A stretch of 49,280 nt of DNA from a candidate division WWE3 bacterium RIFOXYD1_FULL_43_17. Its GTDB lineage: Bacteria; Patescibacteriota; WWE3; UBA101185; UBA10185. Each line of letters opens with the position of its first letter. Position 1 is the stretch's first letter. Below are positions 190 through 25,002 of the stretch, piece after piece. The stretch is taken from positions 1 to 49,280 of the forward strand of contig MEWJ01000032.1 of NCBI GenBank assembly GCA_001773385.1, given 5' to 3'. Under the pieces are notes generated by a model, which saw nothing but the letters and a program-made list of their open reading frames with translations, did no database searches and had not been told where the DNA came from. Both the position numbers and the translations under genes were made by a program.

Positions 190-190
190 A

Positions 191-1235: not shown

Positions 1236-1280
1236 TTACCGCTAGTTAAAGATATGGATATGGGAATTAGTGGAAACATT

Positions 1281-2422: not shown

Positions 2423-2560
2423 ACTTGGGTACGCTGTGAGCAATCTAAACTCTCATAACACATCTAGTATTATAGTAGTCCATTATCCTGTTACCAACAA
2501 CAGTAAAATATTCTACATTACAGAACTGTTACTTAAAAACAAAAATGCCGGTTTAATGGC

Positions 2561-2589
2561 TTGACATTTAGAACGATTAGAACTATGTT
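2561..2589 (+). promoter_or_regulatory. sigma70-type promoter for rep-LSR operon
   Basis: TTGACA (2561-2566), 17 bp, TATGTT (2584-2589); TTAGAAC direct repeat in the spacer. Confidence 0.55.
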
Positions 2590-2809
2590 CAGTTCAACAA
2601 CAGAGATCCAAATTGTTGTTACTCCTAGCGTCCATTTTTAACTCAAGTGAATAAAGACTCTTTACGCGAAAAGGAGTTATTACGGCTTTTTTTCCACAAC
2701 AAATTCCAAATAAATCTTAATGATAGCGACTTACAAGAGTCGTACATCTCCCTTTTGTTTTTGGCGAAAGCCATAAGTAGATATTTAAGTTTAAAAGGAA
2801 ACCTAACTT

Positions 2810-3676
2810 ATGAAAAAAAGTTATAGAGTTGTTCCTCCTGAGGGCGGTAGCCCTCAGGATACTCGACTTGATAGTACCGTCTTAAATGGGACAAACCTTG
2901 GACCATTTTTGAGGCAAGTAGGAAAAAGGATAGAAAATATTAGATTCAGCAACGTTAAAATTGTAAAAAGTAATAATTATTACGAGATTCACGTACCCGA
3001 ACGTCCATTTCTTCTTGGTACACGGCAGCAAAGCTGTTCTCATGAAAAGGAATACAGTAGGTCCCAAGAATATAGAGCAAGAAGCGTAAAAAGAGCTAAA
3101 GACACAATTCGTAGGCTAGTAATAGGCAACTTTACTACAACGGCAAAATTTTTAACGCTAACATTTAATCAAGACCTTTGCGACTTTGATATTAACGATC
3201 TCTCAGCATGTAACAAAAGCATGAGTATTTTTTTTCATTTACTACGACGTTTGTATGGGAATTACAAATATGTTTCTGTAGCGGAGTTTCAGCAAAGAGG
3301 GGCAGTACACTATCATGTTCTAAATGATTTACCGTATATTGATAAAAATGTAATTTATAACTTCTGGGGTTTGGGTTTTATAGACATAAAGAAGTTACAC
3401 AGAATAGAAACAGCTGCTATGTATTTGCTTAAGTATCTGAGCAAGGGTTTGAATGATGAACGATATAAAAATAAAAGAATATATTCTGCTTCAAAAAATT
3501 TAATTAGGCCCGTTAATATTTACAACTCACGTGCTGAAGATATTAAAAGAATATTAGAACAAATGCGAGAACCGGACTTTAAATATGTGTTAAAAAGTAC
3601 GGAAAACGGAAATATATTTGTATCGGAATATATTTTAGGATATAACCTAGGAAACAATGAACCTAACAGACCATGA
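2810..3676 (+). CDS. Rolling-circle replication initiator (HUH endonuclease)
   Basis: Motif I FLTLTF, EFQQRGAVHYH (motif II HUH), motif III YLLKYLSK with two Tyr. Confidence 0.85.
   Translation: MKKSYRVVPPEGGSPQDTRLDSTVLNGTNLGPFLRQVGKRIENIRFSNVKIVKSNNYYEIHVPERPFLLGTRQQSCSHEKEYSRSQEYRARSVKRAKDTIRRLVIGNFTTTAKFLTLTFNQDLCDFDINDLSACNKSMSIFFHLLRRLYGNYKYVSVAEFQQRGAVHYHVLNDLPYIDKNVIYNFWGLGFIDIKKLHRIETAAMYLLKYLSKGLNDERYKNKRIYSASKNLIRPVNIYNSRAEDIKRILEQMREPDFKYVLKSTENGNIFVSEYILGYNLGNNEPNRP
2836..2873 (+). other. Putative double-strand origin (dso): hairpin plus nick-like CTTGATA
   Basis: Perfect 10-bp stem TCCTGAGGGC/GCCCTCAGGA (2836-2859), then CGACTTGATA, resembling phiX174 CAACTTG|ATA and pC194 CTTG|ATA nick sites. 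Confidence 0.65.
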
Positions 3677-5180: not shown

Positions 5181-5186
5181 AACCAC

Positions 5187-5471
5187 TTAGTACACTGTTT
5201 GAGGTTTTATATTGCAGTTAATTCGAATCCAGTCTAAGTCGTAGTCCCCCATTTCTTGTCTTTCTCCATCAATAACAAAATATTGGCGTAAGTTCACTGT
5301 TTTATCATCTTTAACACTTGGCATTTGGTTATCAATCCATGCATCTGGACACACTCTTTTTTTACCGGAAATTATAGATGTGTTGCGGGTTTTAAGAATT
5401 AGTAGAACAAAGGTCAGCGATACAACAACCAGGAGTATGCTAAATATGATTCTTTTTATAGGACTGCTCAC
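5187..5471 (-). CDS. Small membrane-anchored protein, translationally coupled to the giant protein
   Basis: N-terminal TM helix, CPDAWIDNQMP...WIRINC Cys pair; ATGA overlap at 5468-5471. Confidence 0.75.
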   Translation of the reverse strand: MSSPIKRIIFSILLVVVSLTFVLLILKTRNTSIISGKKRVCPDAWIDNQMPSVKDDKTVNLRQYFVIDGERQEMGDYDLDWIRINCNIKPQTVY

Positions 5472-11400: not shown

Positions 11401-14400
11401 AAACAAAGGTATCGATACCATAATAGTTGGTGTTAGGTGCATAACTAAATGAGCCATTATTATTTAGTGATAAGTCACCGTTAGTTACATCAGAGACAAG
11501 AGCCGTGGATATACTTGAATTTTCAGGGTCACTATCATTACTCAGTATTCCTGGAGCTGTAACATTAAGAACAGAGTCTTCATCAGTTGAATAATCATCG
11601 CCTGTACTAATTGGTAAATCATTTACAGCAGTTACTGTTACTGTAGTTGTTTGAGTATCAGACAGATTTGGTGATCCGTAGTCACTTATGGTTACAGAAA
11701 CTTCACATGTAGAAATTGGGGTTGGTCCAACTGGTGTAAATGTATAAACTCCCGAAGAAGAATCTAGCGAACCATTACAAGTATCTGATGCTGATTTTGT
11801 CCACACAGCACTGGGTCCGTCTACATCTGTTTCGTCAGCATCGTATGTGTAAAGCGTATCTTCTGTAGCTGAGTTTGGCGCGGTTGTATTAATTGAAGGT
11901 GCGTCATTAATTGAGTCTACCGTAATTGAGACTGTGGCAAAGTCACTGTCGGCACTGCCATCGTTAACTTTGTATGTAAATGAATCAGAACCATTATATT
12001 CGGAATTTGGAGTATATGTTGTTTGCCCACTACTAATAGGTCCTAAACTTCCATGGGTTGGGCTTGTTCCCAAAATGTAGCTAAATGTGTTTCCTGGAAG
12101 ATCGGGATCAGTTACATTTAATGTAATGTCTTTTGATCTATCTTCATCTGTTGAAACACTAAAGTCATTTACGACAGGAACTACATTAACCTCGTTTACT
12201 GTGATAGTAATGTCTTCTGTATCACTTGTATTACCGTCTGTTACTGAAACGGTTAAATTATATGAATTAGGTCCTTGGCTTTCTGTTGGAGTGAAGGTGA
12301 AGAATCCTGATGTTGACCCAATAGAAGCTCCTGTTGGTGCATTTATAAGCGAGTATGTTAGTGAACTATCTGGATCAGCTGCGCTTGCAGTGAATGTGAG
12401 TGTATCAAGTTCATCGATAATTTTATTCCCAATCGCATCAAGTATCGGAGTATCATTTATAGCCCCAACAGTAATACTTACGGTTGCAGTGTTACTATCA
12501 AGAAACCCATCGCTTGCTTTAAATGTAAAGGAGTCTCCGCCAACGTAATCAGTATTAGGTACGTAGTTTACTTGAGTACCTGAAATTATTTCTAAAGAGC
12601 CATGTGTTGGCGCGTCTATTAAGTTAAAGCTGAGGCTATCTTCATCAATATCATTGCCAGTGAGCGTAACTAATACCTCAGTGTCTTCATCAATAGAAAT
12701 TGATTGAGAATTGGCAGTAGGTGCGTCATTCACAGAATTAACAGATATACTCACTGTAGCTGTATTACTATCAGCATTCCCATCGTTAGCTTTATATGTA
12801 AATGAATCAGGCCCGTTGTAATTTTCGTTTGGTGTGTATAAAACTTGATTTCCGGATACTGTGCCAAGATTCCCATGACTTGCGCCAACTACAATTGAGT
12901 AACTTAAAGAATTTGCTGGTTCATCAGTATCTGTAGCATTCAGGGTTATTGCTTTGCTGTCATCTTCATCTAATGAATCACTTACGCCGTAAGAAACAGG
13001 TACTACATTAACCTCATTTACAGTTATTGTAATGTCTTCGTAATCAATGTTTGACCCATCTGTCACAGAAACAGTCATATAATAGTTATCGGGTCCTTGG
13101 CTTTCTGTTGGAGTGAAGGTAAATACACCACTAGTTGGGTTTATTGATGCTCCACTTGGTTCATCTGTAAGATAGTAAGTTGTAGAGGGCCCATCTGGAT
13201 CAGTGGCAGAAGCTGTGAATGTTAACTGTGTTAATTCATCAACAGTCTTATTGCCAATTGGGTCAAGTACAGGTAGTACCTCATTAACATTAATAGTGTA
13301 TGTCTTTGAAGTTGTACCATCTTGAGCAGTAACTATTAATTCATTGCCAGTTAATATTGGGTCGTTTAGATTCGTATCACTCCAAGTTTGATTGGGCTCA
13401 TCCTTTGTTAATGCTGCTAAAAATGTTGCCTCTGAGGTATTAAATGGGACGTTAGAAATAGTATCGAGTTCAACTGTATAAACTCCTGAAGATACTGTAG
13501 CTATGGTGCTAGGAGACTCTACTGTTACGGTAACAACATAATCCTGTGTAGTACTATTAACAGCGGTTACCGTATATGTAACAGGGCTCGAGAAATCCTG
13601 TGCTACTTCGGAGGGCGGACTTACCATTTCCCCAGTATGTGTAATTGTTGGAAGTAACGAAGATATGTTGGTTCCATAGGGTACTACAAGGGAAATTGTA
13701 TGTTCGTTTTCATTGATAATACCGGTAATTCCCAAGGAATTAAAGTTAAATGAAACGATATCCTTTGAGCCATTTAGTGATCTAACGGCATTATAAGCAT
13801 TTATCCTTTTTCCTGTAACGGTTTTACCAACTAAGCTCGGTTTTGTATCCCCAGTATTTAAAATTGCATTCTTTACTTCATCATAAGTTAGTGAACTATC
13901 TATACTCCATAATAGTGCCGCAAGACCCGCTGTGTATGGTGCAGCAAACGAGGTCCCGTCTACAAATTCGTATTCATATGAACCAGCTGCTCTTTTAAGT
14001 AGAACAATGTCGTCTATTAAACAACCATCCCCGTATGTTCCTTTATCGGAATCGGAATCTGTTACCCATCTAAATCTTAATTTAAAATTACTTGTATAAA
14101 AATCCGATGCGATCGATGCTGTCATGTAAGCGGATGCGTAGCCGCCATCATCCAGTTCATCACCATTGAGAATATCTATCATGGGTTCATCATATTTTCC
14201 TTCCCCCCACCCAAGATCTACCTCACTAAAGTTTGTTCCGTCAGAACTTGCTTCAACAACCATATAATCATGCCAACCATCTAATGGATACTCAGTATCG
14301 CACTCTGTATAGAAACCAATAGCAACATCACTCGCTCCATCTAGATTCACTGTTGAAGTTGTTATTTTACTATTGTTATTTTCTGAATATGGATATTCTA

Positions 14401-16201
14401 AATCCCCATAGAGTACCTTCCAACCTGGTCCCCAAATGTCGCTATAGTCTATGGTTGCAAAAGTACCATCTTCTGTCCATCCACTGGGTATAAATGGAAT
14501 AATGACTGATTCAAAATCCTCGTCAAGTACAGTAGAATCATTAAAAGATAACGAAGTTGAATATATATTTTCACCTGGTGCCCCAACGTCTACAAATGTA
14601 GAGCTATAATTTGAAAAGTTAGACAACCCGTCATTCTGATCAGTTGATGCCACTGAAATGATATTATTAAGGTTAAGGTCTGACGGGTAGGCGTGCGTGT
14701 AGTCATTGTTGGAAGCTTCGTTTCCAGCCGCAGCTATAAAAATTCCTCCATAATTTAGGAATCTATTTATTGCGTCGTATTCAGCTTGTGAATATGCAGT
14801 ACCTGCAAAGCTAGCGTTTATAACTTTAGCTCCGTTTTGAATTGCAAAATCAATTGCCATAACCTCTGAAGCGACATCGAAGCCGTGTTTCAAAGCCATA
14901 ATCTTAGCTCTAAGAGTGACCCCTAATATTCCCTGATTATTATTTCTTGATGCGGCAATTATTCCTGCAGAATATGTCCCGTGAATGCTGTCTGTGGGTT
15001 GGGGATCCTTGTCGTTGTCTTCAAAATCGTACCCGTGTAAACAACCTCCAAGGTTATTTCCGGAAATATCCTTACAATTAGATCCATCCCACATGTTTCC
15101 AACCAAATCAGGATGGTTATATGCAACACCACTATCAATTACTGCTACTATAACGTCAGTAGAACCTTCATCCACCAACCAAGCTTCTGGAGCATCAATA
15201 TCAGAGTCCAATGTCCCTATCACATTATTAACTGTTTGACCTGTATTATCTAAACCCCACAAATTTTGTTTATAGGTGTCATTACTATTGATCGTTTGGG
15301 GATATCTTAAATAATTTGGCTCTGCATACTCAACTCTTTTGTCTTCTCTTAATTCTTTTATTTTATCTTCTACCGATTTGTTATCTTTAATTCTAAGTAA
15401 TGAAATATTGCCAGATCTAGACTCTTTAACTTTTTCTAATTTCTTAGTAAGAGCAAAAACACTAGCTTTAGCTCTACCAAGTGTTCGTTCTAGGTCTATC
15501 TCGCTATCTCTATACTTTACCAATACCTCCCCCGGCATGTATTCCAAATTCTCAGAGGGAACTCTATTAAAAAGGTCTCTATTCTCTTCTTTTGATTTCT
15601 TTTCACCGTGTCGCTGATTTAACCTGAGCATTTCATCGTCACTTTGCACTGCTGTATTTTGTTCAATAGTAGGATCTCGTGTAACCTCACTATTTTCACT
15701 TGTCTCCCCAGTCAGTTCAGACATAATTGTTTCATCTGGGAGAACTTCAATTGGAATTATTTCATCAGTATCATTTGGGATTTCATTCGGGCCTTGTTCA
15801 GATACAGTTGTTTCCTGAGGAGACAATGTATCTTCGGTCAGTTCTAGTGCTGTTGGTTCGCTACCAGGACTTAGAATTTCAAGGGAATCGCTATATGTTA
15901 CCTCACCCACAGGCTCCGGTTGCTCATCACTATCAGATGGCAGAACGCCCGGTTCTGAATCAAGCAGACTTTCAGTTGGGACAGCCTCAACAGCTTCACT
16001 ATTGGGATCAGAACCAGTAATTGCTTCTAATTGCTCCGGAGGTGTAAATTCTTGGTCCCCAGACAACTCTAAAATAGTATTGGATGTTTGAGCAAATACC
16101 GGCGTAAAATAAAGAATTGGATAAAAGTTCTGAAAAATTAATGAAAATATTACAAATTGGTTTAACAACCTATGTGCTATTTTCTTATGTTTAATTTTCA
16201 T
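5468..16201 (-). CDS. Giant surface protein: S8 subtilase + about 25 Ig/cadherin-like (tandem-95/Big_9-type) repeats + FN3-like domains + C-terminal TM anchor
   Basis: Signal-like N-terminus; propeptide (PGEVLVKY...VEYAEPNY); triad VAVIDSG, HGTYSAG, GTSFAAP; repeated NDAP...DED...DSFTYKxNDG units; WTTD..STSRVIY FN3; TM helix then RRKRK. Confidence 0.9.
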   Translation of the reverse strand: MKIKHKKIAHRLLNQFVIFSLIFQNFYPILYFTPVFAQTSNTILELSGDQEFTPPEQLEAITGSDPNSEAVEAVPTESLLDSEPGVLPSDSDEQPEPVGEVTYSDSLEILSPGSEPTALELTEDTLSPQETTVSEQGPNEIPNDTDEIIPIEVLPDETIMSELTGETSENSEVTRDPTIEQNTAVQSDDEMLRLNQRHGEKKSKEENRDLFNRVPSENLEYMPGEVLVKYRDSEIDLERTLGRAKASVFALTKKLEKVKESRSGNISLLRIKDNKSVEDKIKELREDKRVEYAEPNYLRYPQTINSNDTYKQNLWGLDNTGQTVNNVIGTLDSDIDAPEAWLVDEGSTDVIVAVIDSGVAYNHPDLVGNMWDGSNCKDISGNNLGGCLHGYDFEDNDKDPQPTDSIHGTYSAGIIAASRNNNQGILGVTLRAKIMALKHGFDVASEVMAIDFAIQNGAKVINASFAGTAYSQAEYDAINRFLNYGGIFIAAAGNEASNNDYTHAYPSDLNLNNIISVASTDQNDGLSNFSNYSSTFVDVGAPGENIYSTSLSFNDSTVLDEDFESVIIPFIPSGWTEDGTFATIDYSDIWGPGWKVLYGDLEYPYSENNNSKITTSTVNLDGASDVAIGFYTECDTEYPLDGWHDYMVVEASSDGTNFSEVDLGWGEGKYDEPMIDILNGDELDDGGYASAYMTASIASDFYTSNFKLRFRWVTDSDSDKGTYGDGCLIDDIVLLKRAAGSYEYEFVDGTSFAAPYTAGLAALLWSIDSSLTYDEVKNAILNTGDTKPSLVGKTVTGKRINAYNAVRSLNGSKDIVSFNFNSLGITGIINENEHTISLVVPYGTNISSLLPTITHTGEMVSPPSEVAQDFSSPVTYTVTAVNSTTQDYVVTVTVESPSTIATVSSGVYTVELDTISNVPFNTSEATFLAALTKDEPNQTWSDTNLNDPILTGNELIVTAQDGTTSKTYTINVNEVLPVLDPIGNKTVDELTQLTFTASATDPDGPSTTYYLTDEPSGASINPTSGVFTFTPTESQGPDNYYMTVSVTDGSNIDYEDITITVNEVNVVPVSYGVSDSLDEDDSKAITLNATDTDEPANSLSYSIVVGASHGNLGTVSGNQVLYTPNENYNGPDSFTYKANDGNADSNTATVSISVNSVNDAPTANSQSISIDEDTEVLVTLTGNDIDEDSLSFNLIDAPTHGSLEIISGTQVNYVPNTDYVGGDSFTFKASDGFLDSNTATVSITVGAINDTPILDAIGNKIIDELDTLTFTASAADPDSSLTYSLINAPTGASIGSTSGFFTFTPTESQGPNSYNLTVSVTDGNTSDTEDITITVNEVNVVPVVNDFSVSTDEDRSKDITLNVTDPDLPGNTFSYILGTSPTHGSLGPISSGQTTYTPNSEYNGSDSFTYKVNDGSADSDFATVSITVDSINDAPSINTTAPNSATEDTLYTYDADETDVDGPSAVWTKSASDTCNGSLDSSSGVYTFTPVGPTPISTCEVSVTISDYGSPNLSDTQTTTVTVTAVNDLPISTGDDYSTDEDSVLNVTAPGILSNDSDPENSSISTALVSDVTNGDLSLNNNGSFSYAPNTNYYGIDTFVYKISDGTDYSENATVTITVDPINDAPTANSDSASTDEDTQLILTKDEVLTNDTDVDDDHSLLNVQSVSKPINGTVYIDGANIVFTPSTDYFGSASFEYTVSDGYLTNSATVNITVNSINDAPSIDSTAPITATEDILYTYDAEVTDPDGPSASWSKTELDTCNGSLDTNTGYYSFTPNGPVPSASCVLSIKVEDGADPSFSATENVTVNIVAVNDAPTAYGTTAETDEDNSVDIGLNGTDPEDDILTFIVSTVPVHGNVDIDGNVATYTPNPGYNGSDSFEFVVNDGSVDSNDALVSLTITGINDAPVIESIPNQTIDEYYNLQITPVVTDVDGGAPSYSLTNSSVDNSSINTETGEFNFTPDESQGGSVFDFTIQVDDGFEINNIATESFSVTVNEINNSPIATDDNLDVNEDSTLLVNHAYLLSNDTDPDNTTDDFSILSVSNVTPTGSVLTFNSSTIEFTPPENFNGQATYEYLISDGSLTDTGLVTITVNSINDAPVAYDDSSSTDEDSALVITKASLLANDEDVDEDSLSLSIVFDPVNGTVEIDGDNVVFTPSSNYNGSASFSYTVTDGELTDTASVSITINPINDAPVLNTVGDKTIDEFNELNFTATAVEVDTEDVLSFSLSNAPTGASINSSTGEFSFTPVESQGSNTYNVDINVTDGLDSDVETITVTVNEVNVASVVNELWATTNEDTAKVITLEGNDTDIPTQTLNYSVTDPSHGLVSIAGDQVTYTADTNYYGDDAFTYKANDGVTDSSSETVHITVNAINDGPDANPDSASGNEDEDTIIAESGLLTNDTDVDDVTLTLSNVSTPVNGSVAIDGDNVVFTPDSNFNGTAYFDYTVSDGELTDKATVTVTINPINDAPVANLGTASAEEDGVVTITLTGSDVDGDSISYIIVDNPSNGSLGSIVGSQVDYSPNENYEGNDSFTFKVNDGLLDSNIATIDITVTEFNDPPVLDEIGNKSVDELTELTFTATATDPDSSLTYYLSDEPTGATIDTNSGYFSFTPSESQGPQEYTFDVNVTDGVSIDTEIITVTVNEINVAPLVNDVNAATSEDLEKIITLNATDSDIPTQSITYAKVTDPSNGTISILNDSATYTPNANFYGDDSFTYKANDGETDSNTATVFITVTAFNDAPVANPDSASVDEDNTLSVSKETLIENDTDVDDISLVLSSISNPVNGLVSIDGSNVIFTPTSNYFGSASFDYTVSDGSLTDTTTVLVTVNPINDAPSVNDGTAVTDEDNSVSIYLVGTDIEGDSLSYTIIDSTSNGALGGPYGNQVIYTPNENYFGGDSFTFKVDDGNFESNTGTVTITINAINDLPALDVIGDKSIDELAELSFTVTANDSDTSDALELSLTNAPTGASIESDTGNFSFTPTEVQGPNTYNVTVNVTDGIYTDSEEIEITVNEVNTSPVAQDVNTSTNEDVSKSIILNASDADIPANTLTYTVETGANHGTLGTISGNELTYTPDTNYNGVDTFTYKVNDGLADSNIVTVNITVNSVNDAPEANQDNASFDEDTQLILAKNDLITNDTDVDLDTLSVIGVSTPTHGTVYIDGSNIIFTPVNNYNGAASFEYTLSDGTLTDTGFVNLTINPVNDAPTVSADAYSTTQEAAISITLLGNDIENDPLVYSINSDPTNGSLSTVSGNQVTYTPDTGYIGNDSFTYQTNDGEYDSNEATIDITVLPPPVISGESSTNLESTSITITWTTDHLSTSRVIYDTASHPTLGTAPNYGYAYSTIETDGSPMVISHNVTISPLTAETTYYYRAVSHGSPEVVGDELSFTTKKAVEEDTEAPDRPENVGVGYDSDDKTIKLTWENNDSDIDKVFVYLGYSESFDKNSDSRIAENDRDDEDVTVNDVKEGKTYYFKLVSEDGAGNRSNTKTISIEIPSTQEKVIINTYESPTTLAATDEVLESGDETKNVLGLEDVEKDNPSVVEETRKSNIWRYIIPSLVVLSIGTIIILRRKRK

Positions 16202-16337
16202 CTTAATTTATAGTACTTTTAGGTACTACCTATATAATATATTGCTAGGGCGGGAGATACAAGAGATTTATACACCAATTAGGAAGCATATGCAAACCTA
16301 TAGTTGGTATTCCAAAGTGATCTTCGTTCTGCTTGTT

Positions 16338-16357
16338 TTTTGTAGTATTTTGTAGTT
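16338..16357. promoter_or_regulatory. 10-bp direct repeat (TTTTGTAGTA TTTTGTAGTT), putative operator in divergent promoter region
   Basis: Reverse complement (ACTACAAAA x2) resembles the ACTACGAA repeats at 19551-19580. Confidence 0.4.
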
Positions 16358-16397
16358 TTTTACAACAATAGGTGCCTTTTTAAGATAAAATGTAGCC

Positions 16398-16889
16398 ATG
16401 AACATACTTGAAACAAAATCCTATGTGGAGAGCTTTATAGCGTCTTCAAATGGAAAGAAATATACGCCAGATGAGATGATTAATATGATAAAAAAATATA
16501 CAAATATTACGCTTGGCGATGAAAACCCTGTATCAGGAACTCCAAGTCTTGGATATATTAACTCCAATATTAAAGGGGTTTATTACATAATTTACTGTGA
16601 TGCGTGTAATGCAAAGTGTAGAAAATCCTACCCTACTATTCTAAACATTAACGGGAATAAGGTCATGAAGTTTTTATGCGGTAGCTGTGCGGGTAAGAAA
16701 TATGAGCGTAAAAAGGAGTATGAACGAAAAGCTTTAGAATATCTACTTCACCCCGAAAAGCTTGGTTCTATGAACTACCGTAATCTTTCACTTAAACAAA
16801 GCCTAGCGATATTAGAAGCAGGTTTTATTGAAGATAAGATAAGGGAACGAGCCGAAAAGAACGCATCAAAGTATTTAGGCGATAGCTGA
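16398..16889 (+). CDS. Hypothetical protein with CxxC...CxxC zinc finger
   Basis: CDAC and CGSC motifs; TAAAAT 6 nt upstream of ATG. Confidence 0.7.
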   Translation: MNILETKSYVESFIASSNGKKYTPDEMINMIKKYTNITLGDENPVSGTPSLGYINSNIKGVYYIIYCDACNAKCRKSYPTILNINGNKVMKFLCGSCAGKKYERKKEYERKALEYLLHPEKLGSMNYRNLSLKQSLAILEAGFIEDKIRERAEKNASKYLGDS

Positions 16890-16957
16890 TTGCACATATA
16901 AATTAATTGTGTTTTTTCATTGTTCCTGTGCAGTATTAGCGGTATAATTGTGTTAGT

Positions 16958-17386
16958 ATGACGGAAAAAAACGAAATGCAAAACAATGAGGAATTAAAGA
17001 GTAAATTTATACAAGAGCGTGCAATCGGCAAATCTTTTAAGGAGATATCAACAGAACTAAATTTACCAGTTGAGACCCTTGTAGTTTGGGCAAAAACTTT
17101 GAAGTATGACATCGGTAATCAAAAAGCTATTGAGATGGATGAGCTCTCAAATAAGTTTAGAATAACGAAAAGACGAAGAATAGAGCTTATTGGCAGCATC
17201 CTTACTAAAATGCAGGACGAACTCGACACACGGGATTACAAAGATGTTCCAACCGATAAACTGTTTGATTATCTTCTCAAGTACTCTGCAGAACTCAACA
17301 GGGAATATACACCGCCTGTATTTACCGAAATCGTCTCAGGTATGGGTCCTAGTATATGGGAAACCGAAATAACGTGGACTGGCTAG
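16958..17386 (+). CDS. Helix-turn-helix protein
   Basis: RAIGKSFKEISTELNLPVETLVVW HTH pattern followed by helical region. Confidence 0.7.
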   Translation: MTEKNEMQNNEELKSKFIQERAIGKSFKEISTELNLPVETLVVWAKTLKYDIGNQKAIEMDELSNKFRITKRRRIELIGSILTKMQDELDTRDYKDVPTDKLFDYLLKYSAELNREYTPPVFTEIVSGMGPSIWETEITWTG

Positions 17387-17430
17387 AATCTAAATTGTAA
17401 AAATATATCTGCCCAAATATTAAAATTAAT

Positions 17431-19548
17431 ATGAACAAAGACAGGTTATTTGAGAATCTAGTAAATAAGAATAATTTAGAAAAAGCATTTGACTATCTTT
17501 TAGTTGAAATAGAGAACTCTAGTCTTGCAATTGACCCTATATGGACCCCCGCACTGCAAGCAATAAAAAAAAACAGAAAAACATATTTCAACGCACTAAG
17601 TGAACTCCTTATAAACGGATACTTCCAAGCAGACAAAGCAAGATATTTTAAATTTCCGAAAGACAATTTGGGAATTAGGCCGGTCGCAATACTATCTATA
17701 ACAGACAGGATTATCTACCAAGCTATATTTCTTAAGCCCGTATTAGGTAACGTCTTAAAGACTAAATATACACAACCGCCTTGTTATACACCAAACCTAT
17801 CGTCAGAAACAGAAAAAACATATTTAGAAGACTGGCACCAGAAATGGGATGATTACATTAACGATCAAGTTAAAGCATATAGAGACGGTTATATATACAA
17901 AGTAGACCTTGATGTGAAATCATTTTTCGATAACATCAACCACGAACTAATAAAAGATTTTTTAGTGAAAGAATGTAATGTAAACGGAACAAAGGTATTA
18001 GAGATACTTATGAACCTGCTTTCGACCTGGGCACATAAACCTGGTTTTGGTGTTCCCCAAGGACCTGAAGCTTCTATATTCATCGCATCGGCTTTTCTCT
18101 CGCAACTTGATGATAAAGGTATTTCGTTAAGCTCGGAGTTAGAGTTTAGACAATTTAGATACAATGACGACATTTGTTTGATGGCAAAAACCCCCGAAGT
18201 ATTACACCAACTAATAGAAGTACTTTCAAATTATCTTTTTGATATATTTCTAGAACTAAATGGTAAAACTTCATTTTGTCTACTGGACGAGGGCGAACTA
18301 TTAAAGTTAGCAAAACGACGCATTTACTCACCTTATGGTATTAATGAAGATTCTTTATACACAGTACTTAACATTGAGAACTCCATACCAGATTATTTAA
18401 TCAAACTTAGAAATAATCGGCAATTAGAACAGTATGAGGTATCAGCACTTAAATATTATCTTAAAGGCGCAAAGAATAGAGCTTACTGTACCCGTTTTAT
18501 CGACCTGCTTGATAAATCTCACTCACTCTCACTTTACATTTGTAGGTATGTCCAAAAATTTGTAGACGATGCGTCTGTTTATAATTACTTGTGTAAAACA
18601 TATAGCGAAAAACACTTATATTCATGGTCTAAATTTTGGGTGCTTAAAACGCTAATTTCATCTAAACACTTTCAAGATAAGAAAAATTTAGAAAGTTCTA
18701 AAACCCTTGTATTAAACGGCCTGAACGATAAAAGTTGGGAAATAAGGTCATTGTGCCTGTATATTGCCGAATTATTTGGATTTATAAGCGATTCAAGTGC
18801 GCTAATCAGTAAACTCCACAAATCAGCAGATAACATCTTTGAAAAAAGTATGACCACTTATTTATTGGGAAGTAAGAATGAATCAGGGATGATGTCTGAC
18901 TTACTAAGAAGTAACTGCACAGATTTACAAATAATTGCTTTTAGTGCCCTAAATAAACCAGACTTATCAAACTTACCCAATGACCTATCACCATTTAGCC
19001 AATATTTATTAAAAATTAACAACACTAGTACTGTATCCAGTAGTACATCAGTTATTCAACACTCTCTGCTTGATTTAGTAAGTGAGTGTGGGGCTGTGCA
19101 TATAAGTTTAGATACAACTAAACTAAGCAAAGAGCTTGGGTTAACTTGGAATCAAAATAATAGCGGGAAGCTTAAAAGGTCTAAAAAAATTGTACATTGG
19201 GTAGAACTAAACTATTCTGGAGAACTAGTGATGGACAGTGCTTATATTCTATCGAAGCCGAATATTGATAGTGAAAATGAATGTTTCATTTCCTATGTTA
19301 TCAATCGTTCTGGCAAGAATATAACTAAAAAAGATATTGAGAATGACCAAAATATTAAGATAACAAGGTCTTTTAACAACATATTAAATGATTTGGGTTT
19401 TAAGGGTGAGATAAAAAAGCTGTTCTTCCCGATAACAAGTGCGGGAGAAGTGAGGTTTTTCAGAAAGTTGAAGCAGATAGATGTCACATCGTCCTCCATA
19501 GACGAAAAGAAACTGGAGAAACAACTCAAAAAACTCAGACCCTTTTAA
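17431..19548 (+). CDS. Reverse transcriptase (UG/Abi-like architecture) with alpha-helical repeat region and extra C-terminal domain
   Basis: PKDNLGIRPVAILSITDRIIYQA, DLDVKSFFDNINH, GVPQGPEAS, catalytic RYNDD (18160-18171), LELNGKT; HEAT-like segments; Ser/Thr linker; C-terminal about 115-aa domain. Confidence 0.88.
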   Translation: MNKDRLFENLVNKNNLEKAFDYLLVEIENSSLAIDPIWTPALQAIKKNRKTYFNALSELLINGYFQADKARYFKFPKDNLGIRPVAILSITDRIIYQAIFLKPVLGNVLKTKYTQPPCYTPNLSSETEKTYLEDWHQKWDDYINDQVKAYRDGYIYKVDLDVKSFFDNINHELIKDFLVKECNVNGTKVLEILMNLLSTWAHKPGFGVPQGPEASIFIASAFLSQLDDKGISLSSELEFRQFRYNDDICLMAKTPEVLHQLIEVLSNYLFDIFLELNGKTSFCLLDEGELLKLAKRRIYSPYGINEDSLYTVLNIENSIPDYLIKLRNNRQLEQYEVSALKYYLKGAKNRAYCTRFIDLLDKSHSLSLYICRYVQKFVDDASVYNYLCKTYSEKHLYSWSKFWVLKTLISSKHFQDKKNLESSKTLVLNGLNDKSWEIRSLCLYIAELFGFISDSSALISKLHKSADNIFEKSMTTYLLGSKNESGMMSDLLRSNCTDLQIIAFSALNKPDLSNLPNDLSPFSQYLLKINNTSTVSSSTSVIQHSLLDLVSECGAVHISLDTTKLSKELGLTWNQNNSGKLKRSKKIVHWVELNYSGELVMDSAYILSKPNIDSENECFISYVINRSGKNITKKDIENDQNIKITRSFNNILNDLGFKGEIKKLFFPITSAGEVRFFRKLKQIDVTSSSIDEKKLEKQLKKLRPF

Positions 19549-19550
19549 AA

Positions 19551-19580
19551 GACTACGAAGTACTACGAAACCCTATGAAA
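19551..19580 (+). promoter_or_regulatory. Triple 10-bp phased direct repeat upstream of replication operon
   Basis: GACTACGAAG TACTACGAAA CCCTATGAAA directly after the RT stop codon. Confidence 0.5.
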
Positions 19581-19619
19581 CAGGGCATTTATACCCCATA
19601 CCGTTGATATTCTGTCATT

Positions 19620-19877
19620 GTGAACGACAGAATTAATAATAAACAAATTAATACATATAGAAGCACCGATTTAGCAATCACAAGCTTTTTATCGCTTTCC
19701 TTTAATCTCATAGCATTGGAAAAAGTTGAGGGTAATCGTTATGAATTTGTGTTTGAACGTACACCAGAACTAGAGAAAGCAATAGAATCCTTTTTCAACA
19801 ATACCGCAAAAGTTAGTCCCACAGATTATTTCAATTCAATAAAAAGTATCAAATCGAGGATTTATTCCAGGAGTTAA
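19620..19877 (+). CDS. DUF5659-like protein
   Basis: YRSTDLAITSFL...LEK....YEFVFE.TPELEKAIESFF....VSP..YFNSIKSIKSRIY pattern; GTG start. Confidence 0.7.
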   Translation: MNDRINNKQINTYRSTDLAITSFLSLSFNLIALEKVEGNRYEFVFERTPELEKAIESFFNNTAKVSPTDYFNSIKSIKSRIYSRS

Positions 19878-19879
19878 AG

Positions 19880-20086
19880 ATGTTGCCTGTTCAAGCAGTT
19901 ATTGAGTGGAAAGAAATATACAAGAAGACAACAGGAGTTGACCTAAGCATTGAGGACGCCACGGAAAGGGCAAATAGGATGTTTAGATTTTTATCGAATA
20001 TTACGAAGCCGAAAAGAAGTAGAAAATTAAAAATTTTTGAAGGGGGTGATAAAGATGGCAAGAAAACTAACAGTAAAAAAGTCTGA
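19880..20086 (+). CDS. Small hypothetical protein of integrative element
   Basis: 68 aa, in operon between DUF5659-like gene and SSB-like gene. Confidence 0.65.
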   Translation: MLPVQAVIEWKEIYKKTTGVDLSIEDATERANRMFRFLSNITKPKRSRKLKIFEGGDKDGKKTNSKKV

Positions 20087-20438
20087 ATCTATCAAGCCAA
20101 TTCCAGGTGATGTTTATCCTGCTAAATTGGTCCGAATTGATGACGGAGAAGGAGGTTTTGGCGAGTATTACAAATTTGTTTTCGAGATATCAGAAGAATC
20201 TGCGTATCAAGGGGAACAAAGAACATTGCTTGCAAGCCGTAAGCTATCCAGAAGTCCGAAAGGCGAAAGTAAGCTTCTAAACATTTTAGAGGTATTAGCA
20301 GGCAACAAACTGGAGTTGGAAGAAGAAGTTGATGTTGACGATTATGTTGGAAAGAAATGCCGAATCTTGGTTGAGGAACCAAAAGAAAGAGACGGCATGA
20401 TTATCCAAAATGTCACGCAAGTTCTACCTACAAAGTAG
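20055..20438 (+). CDS. Putative ssDNA-binding OB-fold protein (DUF669-like)
   Basis: PGDVYPAKLVRI...YYKFVFEI...YVGKKCRILV pattern; SD GGGGGTGA before ATG at 20055. Confidence 0.55.
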   Translation: MARKLTVKKSESIKPIPGDVYPAKLVRIDDGEGGFGEYYKFVFEISEESAYQGEQRTLLASRKLSRSPKGESKLLNILEVLAGNKLELEEEVDVDDYVGKKCRILVEEPKERDGMIIQNVTQVLPTK

Positions 20439-20449
20439 TATTTAATTTT

Positions 20450-20486
20450 GGTCGGGGGCATTTGCTTGTACCAAGTGTCCCCTACC
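20450..20486 (+). other. GC-rich hairpin between SSB-like gene and primase
   Basis: GGGGCATTTG...CAAGTGTCCCC imperfect inverted repeat; no U-tract on + strand. Confidence 0.45.
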
Positions 20487-20504
20487 TACAAAGAGATTTA
20501 ACAA

Positions 20505-22859
20505 ATGAATTATACCAATAATGAATATATAAAAGAACCTGCGGAGTTCCTAACCGATTGGGGTATCAATTATTCTGATACCAAAAAGGAACTTCGAACC
20601 CTGTGTTTATTTAGTGACTGCGATTCGGATAAATCTGACTACAAACTAGGTCATCTATATATTTCGTCAACCACAGGGCAATATAATTGTAAAAAATGTA
20701 ATGCTACGGGAAATCTCGTGACATTAGCAAAACATTTAGGCATTGATGTTGCTACCCTATATCAGAAGCAAGGCAGGATTAAAGCACGGACTAAAAAGGC
20801 GGAGGTAAAAAACGGGCAACCTGAAAAGGTTTACGATGACGATTTAACTAATGAAGCAGTCGAATGTCATGAGGAGCTTACTACTGCTCATCGCCAATAC
20901 TTTGTAGACAGGGGGTTATCCAATGAAACAATTGATAAATACCTGCTAGGAGAAGCCGAGGTGGGTGGTTTGCAATGGTTAACAATACCCATATTTGATG
21001 AAAATAATCGAGTAATATTTTTTAAGCTAAGAAGACTGCCAGAACAGGAAGAAACTAATCCTACAAAATATAGATATACGAAAGACGCCGAAGCTAGTGT
21101 TTACGGTGTAGAAATTCTAAAAGATGTGTTAAATGAGCCAGTCATTATTACCGAAGGTGAACTTGATTGTCTTGTATTAAGGGATTTAGGTTTTAAGGCT
21201 GTATCTTCTACTGGTGGTGCAGGTACTTTCAAAAATAAATGGGTAGATTACTTTGATAAGGTCTCTGCTGTATTTTTTGCATTTGATAATGATGAAGTTG
21301 GAATTCGTGAAGCCGTTAATCACGCCAAACTGTTTAGAAACAAAGACGTCTATATAGTAGATATACCTAAAATTGAAGGCATAAAAGACATTTCTAACTA
21401 CAGAACAAGTCAAAAGACTAAGGAAGATTTTGAAAAATTACTAAAAGAAGCTAGAAAGTATGACCCCTATAAGTTAGAGTTTTCAGGTATTCAGTTTGCA
21501 GATGCTTTAACAGAATTTATTCCCGCACAGTATTTCACTTCGAATAATGCATATTTGACCCTACAACTGAATGTTAAAAATGAGGATACCGTGGATAAAG
21601 AGACCTATGTAATCAACTCTGAAAGGCAAATAGTCCCTTTAGGTTTATTTCTTAAGACGAATAACTATCTTTCTACAAGAGAACCAAAATTTCCTCAAAG
21701 ATGGTCAACTGAATCATTGGATAGATATTTGAAGAAAAACGATATATCATTAGACTACTTTTCTTTACTTGATAAAACCGTCGGGACGCTAAAATATTAT
21801 CTGGACCTTAATCACGAGGATTGGTATCTGGTTGTAGCTCTCTGGGTTTGGGGAACATACTTTTATAGGCTTTTCGGTTCATATCCCTATTTCAACATCA
21901 ATGGACTTATGAACTCAGGCAAGACAAAACTGCTTGAGTTATGCAGTGAGCTGGCTTTCAATGGTAAATTCTTAATGGGTAGCACTCCTGCTTTTGTTAT
22001 AAGGGAAATACACGAAAATAGTTCTACGATATTTTTAGATGAGGTGGAAAGCCTAAAAAAGGCTTCTACACCTGAAGCACAAACATTGTCCTTAATGCTT
22101 AATTCTGGTTACAAGGCAGGTCCACGAGTTGGAAAAATGCAACCTACAGGTACAAAGGGTTGGGATTCAAAAGAATACGACCCCTACTCCCCTAAAATGA
22201 TTGCAGGCATAAGCGATGTGTCCGAAACATTACAATCCCGTTCCTTAAACTTAACTATGCTTGCAAGCAACAATAAGGAAATTAAAAACCGAGAGCTTGA
22301 AACAACTTCACGTTCTTTCAAGGAGTTAAGAGACGGTTACTACTTATCCGTGATGGACCTGCATAAAGAAATGTTCAAAACATATAAGACATTAACAGAA
22401 ACCAATATTCAGGGACGAAATTGGGAAGTGTGGCGACCCATTTTTACATTGGCAAAAGTTATTGATGATAGAACCCAGCGAGATGGTTTAACCTACAACT
22501 TGGTTAGAGATTTTGCTTTAGACCGAATACATATCGCATCTAGTGTATCTGCCGATGACCAAACTGTAATTCAGCTACTTTTAGCCTTAAAAGACATGAT
22601 GGAAAGTGAGACAAAACGAGAGGCATTTTATCCGACAATAAATCTTAAGACTTTTTTGAAAACAGAGCATGCCGATGACTTTGGATGGCTAGAAAGCACT
22701 AACTATATAGGCGTATTGCTTAGAAGGTCTGGTGTAGTTCTACAAGGGTCTGAAATAAGACGATTAGGCGGTAAACCAATGAGAGGTTATCTTTTGAACC
22801 TAGATGTAATAAATGAGCGACTAAAAGCCTTGGGATTTGAATATGGCGAAATCAAGTAA
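20505..22859 (+). CDS. Primase-helicase fusion (Zn finger + TOPRIM + P-loop ATPase)
   Basis: C....C...H......CKKC zinc finger; ITEGELD and AFDND TOPRIM motifs; Walker A GLMNSGKT and Walker B IFLDE. Confidence 0.85.
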   Translation: MNYTNNEYIKEPAEFLTDWGINYSDTKKELRTLCLFSDCDSDKSDYKLGHLYISSTTGQYNCKKCNATGNLVTLAKHLGIDVATLYQKQGRIKARTKKAEVKNGQPEKVYDDDLTNEAVECHEELTTAHRQYFVDRGLSNETIDKYLLGEAEVGGLQWLTIPIFDENNRVIFFKLRRLPEQEETNPTKYRYTKDAEASVYGVEILKDVLNEPVIITEGELDCLVLRDLGFKAVSSTGGAGTFKNKWVDYFDKVSAVFFAFDNDEVGIREAVNHAKLFRNKDVYIVDIPKIEGIKDISNYRTSQKTKEDFEKLLKEARKYDPYKLEFSGIQFADALTEFIPAQYFTSNNAYLTLQLNVKNEDTVDKETYVINSERQIVPLGLFLKTNNYLSTREPKFPQRWSTESLDRYLKKNDISLDYFSLLDKTVGTLKYYLDLNHEDWYLVVALWVWGTYFYRLFGSYPYFNINGLMNSGKTKLLELCSELAFNGKFLMGSTPAFVIREIHENSSTIFLDEVESLKKASTPEAQTLSLMLNSGYKAGPRVGKMQPTGTKGWDSKEYDPYSPKMIAGISDVSETLQSRSLNLTMLASNNKEIKNRELETTSRSFKELRDGYYLSVMDLHKEMFKTYKTLTETNIQGRNWEVWRPIFTLAKVIDDRTQRDGLTYNLVRDFALDRIHIASSVSADDQTVIQLLLALKDMMESETKREAFYPTINLKTFLKTEHADDFGWLESTNYIGVLLRRSGVVLQGSEIRRLGGKPMRGYLLNLDVINERLKALGFEYGEIK

Positions 22860-23002
22860 CATTTGTAACACCTACGCTTATACATTGTCACAGCGACAAT
22901 ATTTCCCGTTACAAAAATGTTACACATCAAGATGTAGTATTTGTAACATTTCTGTTACAGGCTTATTTGTTGTCGCTAAAGGATATTATGTTTAATGTAA
23001 CA
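22856..23002. repeat. Iteron-like GTAACA/TGTTAC cluster, putative replication origin of element B
   Basis: GTAAC(A) or its complement at about 22856, 22865, 22908, 22918, 22942, 22953, 22996 in both orientations. Confidence 0.65.
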
Positions 23003-23242
23003 AAAATACAAAAATATGAGGACTTAACAAAACTTAACATTTCAGAGCTTATGGTATATGAGATTGAACTTCAGTCTTACCTTCAAACACACGAGCCCGA
23101 TATGTCAAAACAAGGAACAGTGGATGTAAATGACAGACCTTTTGACAGACAACTTTATGAAGAAAAGAAGCAACAATGGTATTCAATTTGGGTCGAGTAT
23201 TTTACGCGACCTGTTGAGGAAGGACTAGATATTAAGTTATAA
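22967..23242 (+). CDS. Small hypothetical protein
   Basis: ORF between primase and LSR; start uncertain (ATG at 22988 possible), overlaps repeat cluster. Confidence 0.45.
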   Translation: MLSLKDIMFNVTKIQKYEDLTKLNISELMVYEIELQSYLQTHEPDMSKQGTVDVNDRPFDRQLYEEKKQQWYSIWVEYFTRPVEEGLDIKL

Positions 23243-23344
23243 TTTTAGTGTTGAATAGATTTAGTTACGAATGTGTAAATAGCCGTATTGGTATAAATGC
23301 ATTCGTGCATCTATTCAACAACCAGTACGGCTTTTTATATTAAT

Positions 23345-24991
23345 ATGGATTTTTTAGTAAACAAAGATATACAAAATAAAAACGGCATTGAATACTGTAG
23401 AAAATCTACGGAGTCAGAAGACCGCCAAGCCTTTTCTCTTAAAGACCAACATGATGTCAATTTTAAAGTAGCGGAAAGATATGGTGTAAAAGTTAAAAAA
23501 TCGCTTCAGGAATCAATGTCTGCCAAGAAAAGAGGAAGACCGTTTTTCAATGAAATGGTTGCAAGTGTTGAAAGTGGTAAATATGAAGTCATTGTATGTT
23601 GGGCATTAAACCGTTTAGCCCGTAATTCAGTTGATGGTGCGATGCTAATTGAGTTGATGGATAATAAAAAGCTTCATGCAATTCTAACTCCTGGAAAAGT
23701 CTACTATAACAGTGGCGACGACAAGCTGTTACTTCAAATAGAATTTGGATTAGCTAAGAAATATTCCGATGATTTAGGACCTACTGTGTTAAGAGGTATG
23801 TATTCAAAGCTTAAGCGTGGTTGGTATCCTGGTCCTGCAAAGCCTGGTTATATCAATAGAAAAGAAAAAGGCGAAATAATACAGGTAATAGATGAAGAAC
23901 GATTTCCACTATTAAGAAAGGGTATTGAAATGTACCTAGAAGGAGCAAGAGTCGAACATGTACTTGAGCTACTAAATGATAAGTGGGGTTATAAAACCAT
24001 ACAAACTGAAAAAACAGGAAATAAACCTTTATCAATATCAAGCTTTTATCGAATACTAAACGACAGTTTTTACTTTGGAAAAATAGTGTGGAACGGTGAG
24101 GAAGGTGAGCTTAATCCCGAAGTACCAAAACTTGTGTCCGAGAAAGAGTTCTGGGATATACAACGAAGACTTGGTGCAAAAGGTATTTCAAGACCTTCAA
24201 AACACATGGAAGTCCCCTACCGAAGCATCATTAAATGTTCAGAGTGTGGAAGCGCCATAATCACTTACCCCAAAATTAAGAAACTAGCTTCAGGAGAAAC
24301 AGTAGTTTATTTATATGCTAAATGTTCAAGCAAAAAACATTGTACACAGAAGCACATCTCCGTTTCAAAAATTGAAAAGCAACTTAATGAGATTGTGAAA
24401 ACCGTAGAAGTGTCTCAAGACTTCCATGATTGGTTTTTGAAATGGCTAAAACACGACCATCAAGTTGAAACTACTGAAACCGAAGTTCTACTACAAAGAA
24501 TAGACGCACAGATTGAAATCCAACATAAACGAAGAAATAATTTATTTGAGATGAGACTTAATGGCGAAGCGGTTGAAGTTGAGTATAGGACCAAGAAAGA
24601 AGAAATCGAAGTTGAAATCAAAAGATTGGAAAAAGAAAGAGCGGGGGTTAAGTACGCGTCTGACGATTGGATTAAAAGAGCTGAAAAACGCATTAACTAC
24701 GCTTTATACGCAAGAGACACTTTAGAAAATGGTGATTACTTACAAAAATCAAGTGTACTTTCGGATTTGGGTTCGAACTTTTTGCTAAAAGAGGGTTTAC
24801 TCTTTGCTGACATAGACCCGATGCTTGCCGTCTTCAAAAAACACTATGAAATTGTTAATAAGGATTTAATAGGGTTCGAACTGGAAGATAAGTTGTTAAA
24901 TCAAGCTAACTCTGAAATTTTGAAATCATGGCTGGGGGATAGGGATTCGAACCCCAATAGGCGGGACCAAAACCCGCAGTCCTACCGTTAG
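23345..24991 (+). CDS. Large serine recombinase B; C-terminus read antisense through tRNA-Gln
   Basis: YCRKSTE motif, LNRLARN, CSECGS...C....C zinc ribbon, coiled coil; ends WLGDRDSNPNRRDQNPQSYR; alternative start 23297. Confidence 0.93.
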   Translation: MDFLVNKDIQNKNGIEYCRKSTESEDRQAFSLKDQHDVNFKVAERYGVKVKKSLQESMSAKKRGRPFFNEMVASVESGKYEVIVCWALNRLARNSVDGAMLIELMDNKKLHAILTPGKVYYNSGDDKLLLQIEFGLAKKYSDDLGPTVLRGMYSKLKRGWYPGPAKPGYINRKEKGEIIQVIDEERFPLLRKGIEMYLEGARVEHVLELLNDKWGYKTIQTEKTGNKPLSISSFYRILNDSFYFGKIVWNGEEGELNPEVPKLVSEKEFWDIQRRLGAKGISRPSKHMEVPYRSIIKCSECGSAIITYPKIKKLASGETVVYLYAKCSSKKHCTQKHISVSKIEKQLNEIVKTVEVSQDFHDWFLKWLKHDHQVETTETEVLLQRIDAQIEIQHKRRNNLFEMRLNGEAVEVEYRTKKEEIEVEIKRLEKERAGVKYASDDWIKRAEKRINYALYARDTLENGDYLQKSSVLSDLGSNFLLKEGLLFADIDPMLAVFKKHYEIVNKDLIGFELEDKLLNQANSEILKSWLGDRDSNPNRRDQNPQSYR

Positions 24992-25002
24992 ACGATCCCC
25001 CA
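24929..25002 (-). tRNA. tRNA-Gln(UUG), integration target
   Basis: TGGGGGA/TCCCCCA acceptor, GCGGG-TTTTGGT-CCCGC anticodon arm, GGTTCGAATCC T-arm, encoded CCA. Confidence 0.97.

Follow-up and report, generated by a model that had tools for sequence, protein, structure and literature searches.

Tandem islands at a tRNA-Gln gene of a WWE3 bacterium and a T-loop-like box at fixed offsets in the attachment sites of a family of large serine recombinases

The 49,280-nt contig MEWJ01000032.1 of candidate division WWE3 bacterium RIFOXYD1_FULL_43_17 (assembly GCA_001773385.1, 863 kb in 59 contigs) is called the window below. It contains two islands, E1 and E2, stacked at the 3' end of a tRNA-Gln(TTG) gene. 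We consider it likely that each island owes its insertion to a large serine recombinase of its own (LSR; LSR1 in E1 and LSR2 in E2), that the two enzymes belong to a widespread family directed at tRNA 3' ends, and that this family reads a box in the T-loop of the tRNA, a copy of which lies 5 bp further out in the attachment site of the element (attP; the host site is attB).

Three copies of a TGGCTG core were read directly in the window (Table 1), and the TGG of the third is the CCA encoded by the tRNA-Gln gene, which ARAGORN placed on the minus strand. With the arms of the element called P and P' and those of the host B and B', the order along the contig is B arm, core, E1, core, E2, core, tRNA-Gln. 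The GC content is 0.33-0.39 across positions 1-25000 vs 0.40-0.48 in the host part beyond. Both LSR open reading frames (ORFs) cross a core in the frame TGG CTG (W-L). By reading of the sequence a stop codon lies four codons before position 158, so that no LSR gene ends at core copy 1.

The island boundaries were compared with related genomes and public contigs. In a complete genome of the same genus (G001) the attB is empty: 17 nt equal to window positions 139-155 directly abut the 3' end of a near-identical tRNA-Gln(TTG) gene. A joint from 5134 to 24928, which skips 19,793 nt and has 7 letters common to both sides, occurs in Logan contigs of two groundwater/sediment runs (X7 and X16). This joint is the E2-free form, in which an LSR1-type P arm meets the tRNA, and it may represent the state before integration rather than an excision product. 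No circle junction of E2 was found among the public contigs listed, which cannot show absence. The assignment of arms to enzymes is supported by two further tRNA-Gln pairs of left and right junctions (attL and attR) found in other loci. In another genome the attL that belongs to an LSR 72% identical to LSR2, 13.07 kb upstream of it, bears almost the same P' arm, and the tail encoded there, W-L-G-I-R-E-Q-V-R-T-A-V-L-V, nearly equals that of the window arm at 5136. Pattern matches in two other loci (L181 and L182) fell within open coding sequence, lacked the surroundings of a tail and stop, and were set aside as probable chance.

Offsets in the window were counted from the T of the TGG; +17 and +22 refer to the start of the heptamer TTSGAAC, and +18 and +23 to the start of TNGAAC. 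In the two element arms TTGGAAC (180-186) and TTCGAAC (5158-5164) both start at +22, and in the tRNA arm TTCGAAC (24946-24952), the reverse complement of G53-T54...A59 of the T-stem and T-loop, starts at +17. These cores and offsets, which an earlier note on this DNA had reported, were borne out by direct reading. The position at +17 is a trivial result of tRNA geometry, and the non-trivial observation is the box at +22 in the element arms. The composite pattern TGGCTG-N16-TTSGAAC has two matches in the window (158 and 5136) vs 0.00 expected from 100 shuffles, which is far beyond chance. TTCGAAC alone is not enriched (11 copies vs 7.05 expected); the signal therefore lies in the fixed offset and not in the heptamer.

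In order to measure the same offsets across homologs, a protein search was run that returned 711 relatives at E<=1e-20 among 7,997 candidates scored, and 160 loci were fetched, half of them (80) from genomes that represent many phyla and the other 80 from metagenomes. The family spans Patescibacteria, Verrucomicrobiota, Ignavibacteria, Eisenbacteria and others. The C-termini of these relatives are of two kinds, either read from a tRNA (W-x-G-x-R-D/E-S-N-P...) or native (W-x-x-x-V-E-D-V-R-T-F...), with the W column common to both classes in the protein alignment. Among the 160 loci, 48 distinct LSR ORFs enter a minus-strand tRNA gene (Gln, Ala, Leu, Asp, Trp, Gly, Ile, Asn, Ser, Glu, Val, His, Tyr or Met), and T[CT]G[AG]AC stands at +18 in 47 of them, the exception (L057) being a 3-nt mis-setting of the script. 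The native tail is kept in 55 distinct ORFs, where the box T-C/A-GAAC is at +23. An upstream anchor motif lies 22 codons before codon 0 in both classes (35 and 39 ORFs), and both offsets are therefore measured from one reference.

A second scan was based on this anchor, with no selection on the box. It covered 161 ORFs, of which 31 lacked the anchor and 6 lay at contig edges, and 121 distinct ends were kept. TNGAAC was found at +18 in 38/39 tRNA-joined ends; of the 82 other ends, 38 had it at +23 and five at +18, and four of these five on inspection have tRNA-like sequence or tRNA-read tails that ARAGORN had not flagged. No remaining offset exceeded 6/82 (+36 in 6, +39 in 4, +25 in 2), and the listed +36 and +39 cases proved on inspection to be wrong-anchor picks. 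Within loci where attL and attR could be paired, there were five hits at offset 22 vs three over the 24 other offsets tried. Across phyla, then, the offsets that the earlier note had proposed to compare among homologs are bimodal, at +18 and +23, and do not vary randomly.

The box in the P' arm is also conserved at positions that the protein does not see. Its Val codon is GTT in 44/45 cases, vs 25.5% in the background of the same genes, and its Arg codon is CGA (34) or AGA (19) in 53/55, vs 30%, in genes whose GC content ranges from 0.33 to 0.66. The neighbouring third position (position 20) holds 0.20 bits only, and the 5-nt spacer of the P' arm (G-A-Y-G-T) is itself conserved. At approximately 30% protein identity synonymous sites should be randomised; since codon choice at these sites is nearly fixed, the box is under selection as DNA and not as protein.

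The geometry of the right-hand arms was compared with that published for the Listeria innocua (LI) integrase. According to the relevant passages of PMC3783163, the zinc-ribbon motif covers positions 16-24 of the half-site in attP but 11-19 in attB, and a helix of the recombinase domain contacts positions 9-11. This agrees with the premise of the earlier note that the zinc-ribbon motif lies 5 bp nearer the crossover in attB. The identity between attL and attR extends over 6-7 bp in the window, and the identical blocks there and in five paired loci always include positions 2-5. GGA is found at 14-16 in both the tRNA arm, where it belongs to the T-stem, and the P' arm, and is thus unshifted. If the centre is placed at 4.5, GGA falls at half-site positions 10-12 and the box at about 14-20 in attB and 19-25 in attP, which match the LI positions of 9-11, 11-19 and 16-24 (relevant passages of PMC3783163) to within 1-3 bp. 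The right-hand arms accordingly follow the rule of the LI/A118 family, with the box at +18 vs +23 and GGA in place. An inner dyad about the axis 4.5 was seen in the 55 native sites, with T-7, C-6 and C-5 set against G14, G15 and A16 (T-7 and A16 complementary in 46/55), and this TCC/GGA pair is the only symmetric element across the arms. Dyad symmetry was also tried as a means of locating the crossover and was rejected, the inner signal being weak and the axes 0.5, 4.5 and 9.5 behaving alike.

We propose a mechanism in which the attP of each island would overlap the last codons of its LSR gene and the crossover would occur a few bases within the end of the tRNA gene, probably at positions 4-5 as numbered from the T of TGG. 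On integration the enzyme's own tail (...V-R/G-T...) would then be exchanged for one that the tRNA supplies (...D-S-N-P...). The right half-site would present two landmarks, the first being the GGA, in the same place in both arms, and the second the box T-C/A/G-GAAC-C/T, which is the T-loop itself in the tRNA and its displaced copy in the element arm. The zinc-ribbon domain would dock 5 bp nearer the crossover on attB than on attP, as in the LI/A118 integrase, and because the arrangement matches that geometry, we infer from geometry that this domain is the putative reader of the T-loop box.

The suggestion in the earlier note that these LSRs read the T-loop as their attB motif is supported comparatively, by the fixed offsets and the synonymous sites, with binding putative. 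Its further proposal that this would explain tRNA targeting holds in part: the T-loop is supported as a landmark, but a universal T-loop does not explain the choice of tRNA-Gln, since subfamilies occur in 14 tRNA types, and the choice of tRNA must therefore come from the inner part of the arm. Similarly, the two LSRs do share one tRNA site, as the earlier note had it, and they are better described as two members of one tRNA-targeting family, 29% identical to each other, in tandem.

Additional copies of the box lie inside the LSR genes, upstream of the core. Across the family they are found at -168 in 63/103 and at -65 in 71/103 (as T[CA]GAAC). The upstream copies encode G-S-N and [F/L/I]-E-P while the P' copy encodes V-R-T, so that three different reading frames are used. 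The synonymous sites of the upstream boxes are likewise constrained, with Ser encoded by TCG in 82/88 (background 19%), Asn by AAC in 88/88 (background 50%), and Glu by GAA in 77 and by GAG in none (background 60%). One DNA word is thus conserved in all three reading frames. In the 49-kb window GTTCGAAC occurs exactly three times (24771, 24874 and 5157), always in parts of the E2 attP, and GTTGGAACC exactly three times (4944, 5035 and 179), always in the attachment regions of E1. The G variant changes G-S-N to C-W-N in the second upstream box of E1, where relatives have G-S-N, and V-R-T to V-G-T in the P' arm; in an LSR that is 26% identical (L116) a G-variant upstream box is likewise paired with a G-variant P' box. 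That all copies change together in the same sense points to a single protein as the reader. Pairing between near-palindromic boxes as RNA or single strands was rejected on the same ground and because the E1 variant GTTGGAACC is not self-complementary. Boxes A and B were also checked for tracking of the base that precedes TCGAAC in the target tRNA, and no clear relation was seen.

Several observations weigh against the proposed mechanism. The two extra boxes, in direct orientation 53-190 bp left of the core, are left unexplained by a half-site model and allow another reader or architecture. A canonical LSR site bears zinc-ribbon motifs on both arms; here they are on the right arms only. No mirrored box was found in the P arms of the 55 native sites, where the profile is nearly flat at -20..-12 and complementarity is limited to 3/55 for positions 22/-13 and 6/55 for 23/-14, and none was seen in the B arms, which are unrelated tRNA trailers or terminator-like hairpins. 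The overall dyad is weak (0.306 at axis 4.5), and the axes 0.5 and 9.5 score equal or higher. In the anchor-based scan 44/82 non-tRNA ends lack an exact TNGAAC at +23; by inspection these are mostly wrong-anchor picks or near-variants such as GTTCGCGCC or GTTCGGACT, with not every one resolved. The boxes of E1 differ from the T-loop in having G instead of C, so an exact T-loop sequence is not needed. Finally, the binomial P of approximately 1e-25 for each of the Val and Arg codons overstates independence, the homologs being kin by descent.

It is therefore worth asking whether the box could be a real recognition element that is not, or not only, a canonical zinc-ribbon half-site, the three direct copies forming an extended, multi-site attP. 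The reader would then be extra LSR subunits or another factor encoded by the element or the host, and the likeness to the 5-bp rule would be partly coincidental. The frequent boxes at -168 and -65, their strong synonymous-site conservation in three frames, the element-specific triplets in the window and the left arms without a mirrored box all favor such a reading. On the other hand, the distances of box C and the T-loop from the identity block fit the LI geometry within 1-3 bp, GGA stays in place while the box moves by exactly 5 bp, as the LI model requires, and to our knowledge no accessory sites are known for LSRs. We regard this explanation as unlikely, although it is the strongest of the alternatives. 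A related scheme, which is speculative and to which we give a similarly low probability, would retain the zinc-ribbon domain: in an extended asymmetric attP with three direct T-loop-like boxes, one would be the P' half-site motif, and the other two would serve additional zinc-ribbon domains as accessory sites of the arm type. In combination with the tail swap, this arrangement could set directionality without a separate factor and could let a resident attR (P arm plus tRNA) be re-targeted, giving rise to tandem arrays.

The remaining alternatives fare far worse. The element arm might be what is left of a tRNA 3' end, like the tRNA copies in islands of tyrosine integrases, that gained 5 nt, decayed and has no function today; the P' arm does resemble the tRNA arm over positions 0-5 and 13-16 as well as in the box. 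However, synonymous sites of a relic would not hold across LSRs that come from many phyla and are approximately 30% identical, the direct repeat spans no more than 6-7 bp, and the spacer G-A-Y-G-T is conserved; serine recombinases, furthermore, require a match at the crossover dinucleotide alone. This origin is highly improbable. Slightly less probable still is that the box at +22/+23 only reflects protein conservation, with the native tail requiring V-R-T and TTCGAAC being one encoding of it. Many homologs do have V-R/G-T at codons 7-9, and the adjoining residues (E/D before, F/Y after) are conserved too. This explanation is already contradicted by the GTT and CGA/AGA codons, which are nearly fixed where protein selection is blind, and by the low information of third position 20; in addition, the same hexamer is kept in two other frames, one and the same base substitution in the box gives LSR1 and L116 very different residues (S to W, R to G), and the integrated enzymes bear unrelated tails read from tRNAs. 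A chance coincidence of short motifs, for which the unremarkable count of TTCGAAC by itself could be cited, is already refuted by the composite pattern and the family-wide fixed offsets and has next to no probability.

The protein sequences of LSR1 and LSR2 were analyzed for domains. Both match PF00239 (Resolvase; E 5.7e-18 for LSR1 and 4.1e-16 for LSR2) and PF07508 (Recombinase), while the zinc ribbon PF13408 is matched by LSR1 with 26.3 bits (cut-off 25.3) and by LSR2 with 22.6 bits, below the cut-off. In an alignment of 37 homologs C314 and C317 of the four zinc-ribbon cysteines are invariant and C343 and C349 nearly so; of the catalytic columns, Y33, R35 and S37 are nearly invariant and R81, R106 and R109 invariant. 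The best PDB match is the SPbeta integrase (E 1.6e-9), in an alignment that extends to residue 446 and places S37 on the Ser of the Y-x-R-x-S stretch; the reach of this alignment suggests that a coiled-coil insert in the zinc-ribbon domain may be present. On these criteria LSR1 and LSR2 are bona fide LSRs that are remote from the solved ones.

Table 1. Features of the window, grouped from left to right.
Feature	Position	Strand	Remarks
Left flank	1-157		B arm at its end (139-155), the sequence that natively follows tRNA-Gln(TTG)
Core copy 1 (TGGCTG)	158-163	+	attL junction of E1; 6-7 bp identity with other cores
P' arm of E1	164-205	+	In-frame reading; would encode LSR1 free-form tail W-L-A-A-W-K-L-V-G-T...
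Box C of E1, GTTGGAACC	179-187	+	Within E1 P' arm
Island E1, 4,978 bp	158-5135		AbiV-like, Rep, LSR1 (Pfam); GC 0.33-0.38
AbiV-like gene (HEPN_AbiV)	1281-1949	-	E1; Pfam
Rolling-circle Rep (REP_ORF2-G2P)	2810-3676	+	E1; Pfam
LSR1 (Resolvase + Recombinase + Zn_ribbon_recom)	3657-5180	+	E1; Pfam
Upstream boxes of E1, GTTGGAACC	4944-4952, 5035-5043	+	Inside LSR1 3' coding end
Core copy 2 (TGGCTG)	5136-5141	+	Joins P arm of E1 to P' arm of E2
P' arm of E2	5142-5180	+	Encodes a tail of the native type, W-L-F-I-G-E-Q-V-R-T-A-I-L-V-stop, into which LSR1 reads at present
Box C of E2, GTTCGAAC	5157-5164	+	Within E2 P' arm
Island E2, 19,793 bp	5136-24928		Pfam, PADLOC; exact segment skipped in contigs of X7, X16
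S8 subtilase / cadherin / Big_9 protein, 3577 aa	5468-16201	-	E2; Pfam
UG19-like reverse transcriptase, 705 aa	17431-19548	+	E2; PADLOC RT_UG19, E 3.7e-50
Toprim protein, 784 aa	20505-22859	+	E2; weak match to PADLOC 'RTasDnaG-like' model
LSR2	23297-24991	+	E2; Pfam; last 21 codons read into tRNA-Gln
Upstream boxes of E2, GTTCGAAC	24771-24778, 24874-24881	+	Inside LSR2 3' coding end; encode G-S-N, F-E-L
tRNA-Gln(TTG), B' arm	24929-25002	-	Core copy 3 at 24929-24934; T-stem GGA 24943-24945; T-loop box TTCGAACC 24946-24953

Related arrangements were noted outside the window. Positions 1-1932 of another contig of the same assembly (C58) contain a second copy of window positions 1-163 with one mismatch, followed by a third P'-type arm with a G-variant box, which is a third +22 arrangement (C58:174-202). 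This arm is followed by methyltransferase and amidase genes, with no LSR, and by tRNA-Gln(CTG) after 1.68 kb; four genomes of the same genus match C58 only from tRNA-Gln(CTG) rightwards, and in G001 the two tRNA-Gln sites are inverted and about 555 kb apart. The C58 arrangement may reflect the decay of an island, variation among strains, or a rearrangement that involved both tRNA-Gln sites. In another genome of the genus (G002) the 3' end of an LSR gene (L172:1440-1530; ...A-I-R-S-S-W-L-G-D-R-D-S-N-P) reads into tRNA-Gln(CTG), and both glutamine tRNA genes are therefore targeted in this genus. A tandem like that of E1 and E2 occurs at locus L079, where an LSR with a native tail (3057-4697) lies 7 kb upstream of a second LSR joined to tRNA-Asn (9980-11668).

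A strong hairpin followed by a T-run was found just downstream of the tRNA, on the tRNA strand, in 25/48 of the tRNA-joined relatives (z < -2; mean z -2.13). It lies antisense within the last codons of the LSR gene, in the 55 nt left of codon 0 (for example in L055, L063, L065, L017 and L135). Such an island would, as predicted from sequence, bring a replacement terminator for a tRNA whose own trailer is displaced. No such terminator is present in the P arms of the window, where 24874-24928 and 5081-5135 were compared (z +1.49 for LSR1 and -0.31 for LSR2). In a viral collection 29 matches were obtained, of which an IMG/VR contig (L184, ORF 2734-4767) with the native tail GAT GTT CGA ACC was the sole close family member; at least one predicted virus would thus carry the free-form attP, the family being otherwise rare in that collection.

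The cargo of E2 is dominated by the S8 subtilase/cadherin protein, which has about 20 Big_9/cadherin-like repeats, takes up more than half of the island, and is unusual cargo for a 0.86-Mb genome. The reverse transcriptase gene adjoins the Toprim gene, and the two may be a candidate defence-type reverse transcriptase pair. Within the Toprim gene a stretch of 240 nt (20730-20972) has 3-4x the depth of its surroundings in public contigs and is also found in diverged contigs (13-22 differences) that run into unrelated sequence; it is a segment common to other elements or organisms. The ORFs at 191-823, 927-1235, 2078-2443, 5187-5471, 16398-16889, 16958-17386, 20037-20438 and 22967-23242 had no match in Pfam, PADLOC or both. 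No Pfam match to a tyrosine recombinase was obtained among the 18 ORFs scanned, which were chosen from 30 ORFs of at least 80 aa in 1-26500.

Serine integrases are usually tied to protein-coding targets. In the present islands, on comparative support, LSR attachment-site recognition appears to be applied to the tRNA T-arm, with an attP embedded in the gene; what appears to be new is the multi-box layout inside the LSR genes. These results suggest a testable rule for tRNA homing by serine integrases, in which the invariant T-arm is an attB-type landmark and a copy displaced by 5 bp is carried in attP. If true, it would confirm, in nature and over a wide phylogenetic range, the way in which the LI-integrase model distinguishes attP from attB. 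With a T-arm present in every tRNA, it may be possible to direct such enzymes to other tRNA genes by altering nothing but the inner (acceptor/T-stem) reading, a prospect of value to integrase engineering.

Lambda attP with its arm-type sites and resolvase res with its accessory subsites both have additional motifs for recombinase binding on one side, outside the crossover site, and for the two upstream boxes described here they serve as an analogy only. The closest known system is the Listeria innocua/A118-family serine integrase (Rutherford et al. 2013, relevant passages of PMC3783163), which has the same set of catalytic, recombinase and zinc-ribbon domains, an unshifted inner motif, an outer motif of 7-9 bp that is 5 bp closer in the host site, and similar distances from the crossover. 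Unlike LI/A118, the islands here have the motif on the right-hand arms (P' and B') only, and the host motif is the T-loop/T-stem of a tRNA; the left host arm is an unconserved tRNA trailer, the attP is inside the integrase gene, and there are two more upstream copies of the motif.

An attP inside a gene, with integration altering the C-terminus of the protein, has reportedly been described by Broussard et al. in 2013 for the integration-dependent immunity of mycobacteriophages, and Mx8 IntP/attP is said to combine an attP inside a gene with the use of a tRNA locus; both involve tyrosine integrases. The mycobacteriophage precedent is cited in the report on the LSR of Roseburia phage Shimadzu (Cornuault et al., 10.1101/575076), in which the integration site is likewise inside the LSR gene, the forms differ in the last approximately 20 residues, and a second copy was found inserted in a tRNA. 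The relevant passages of that report mention no T-loop copy, 5-bp offset or upstream boxes, and the word 'attP' is absent from its text. Our literature search found no paper describing a T-loop copy, a 5-bp displacement or extra boxes for serine integrases, and in the text of Durrant et al. 2022, with the supplements outside the search, 'tRNA' has 0 occurrences. The tRNA islands of tyrosine integrases (Islander/TIGER type; relevant passages of PMC12884075) likewise target the tRNA 3' end, leave the tRNA intact and form tandem arrays. In contrast to those islands, no tyrosine recombinase was matched among the 18 ORFs scanned here, and the direct repeat measures 6-7 bp, where theirs runs to tens of bp. 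Here the tRNA stays whole because the crossover would lie at its very end, whereas tyrosine-integrase islands carry a replacement copy.

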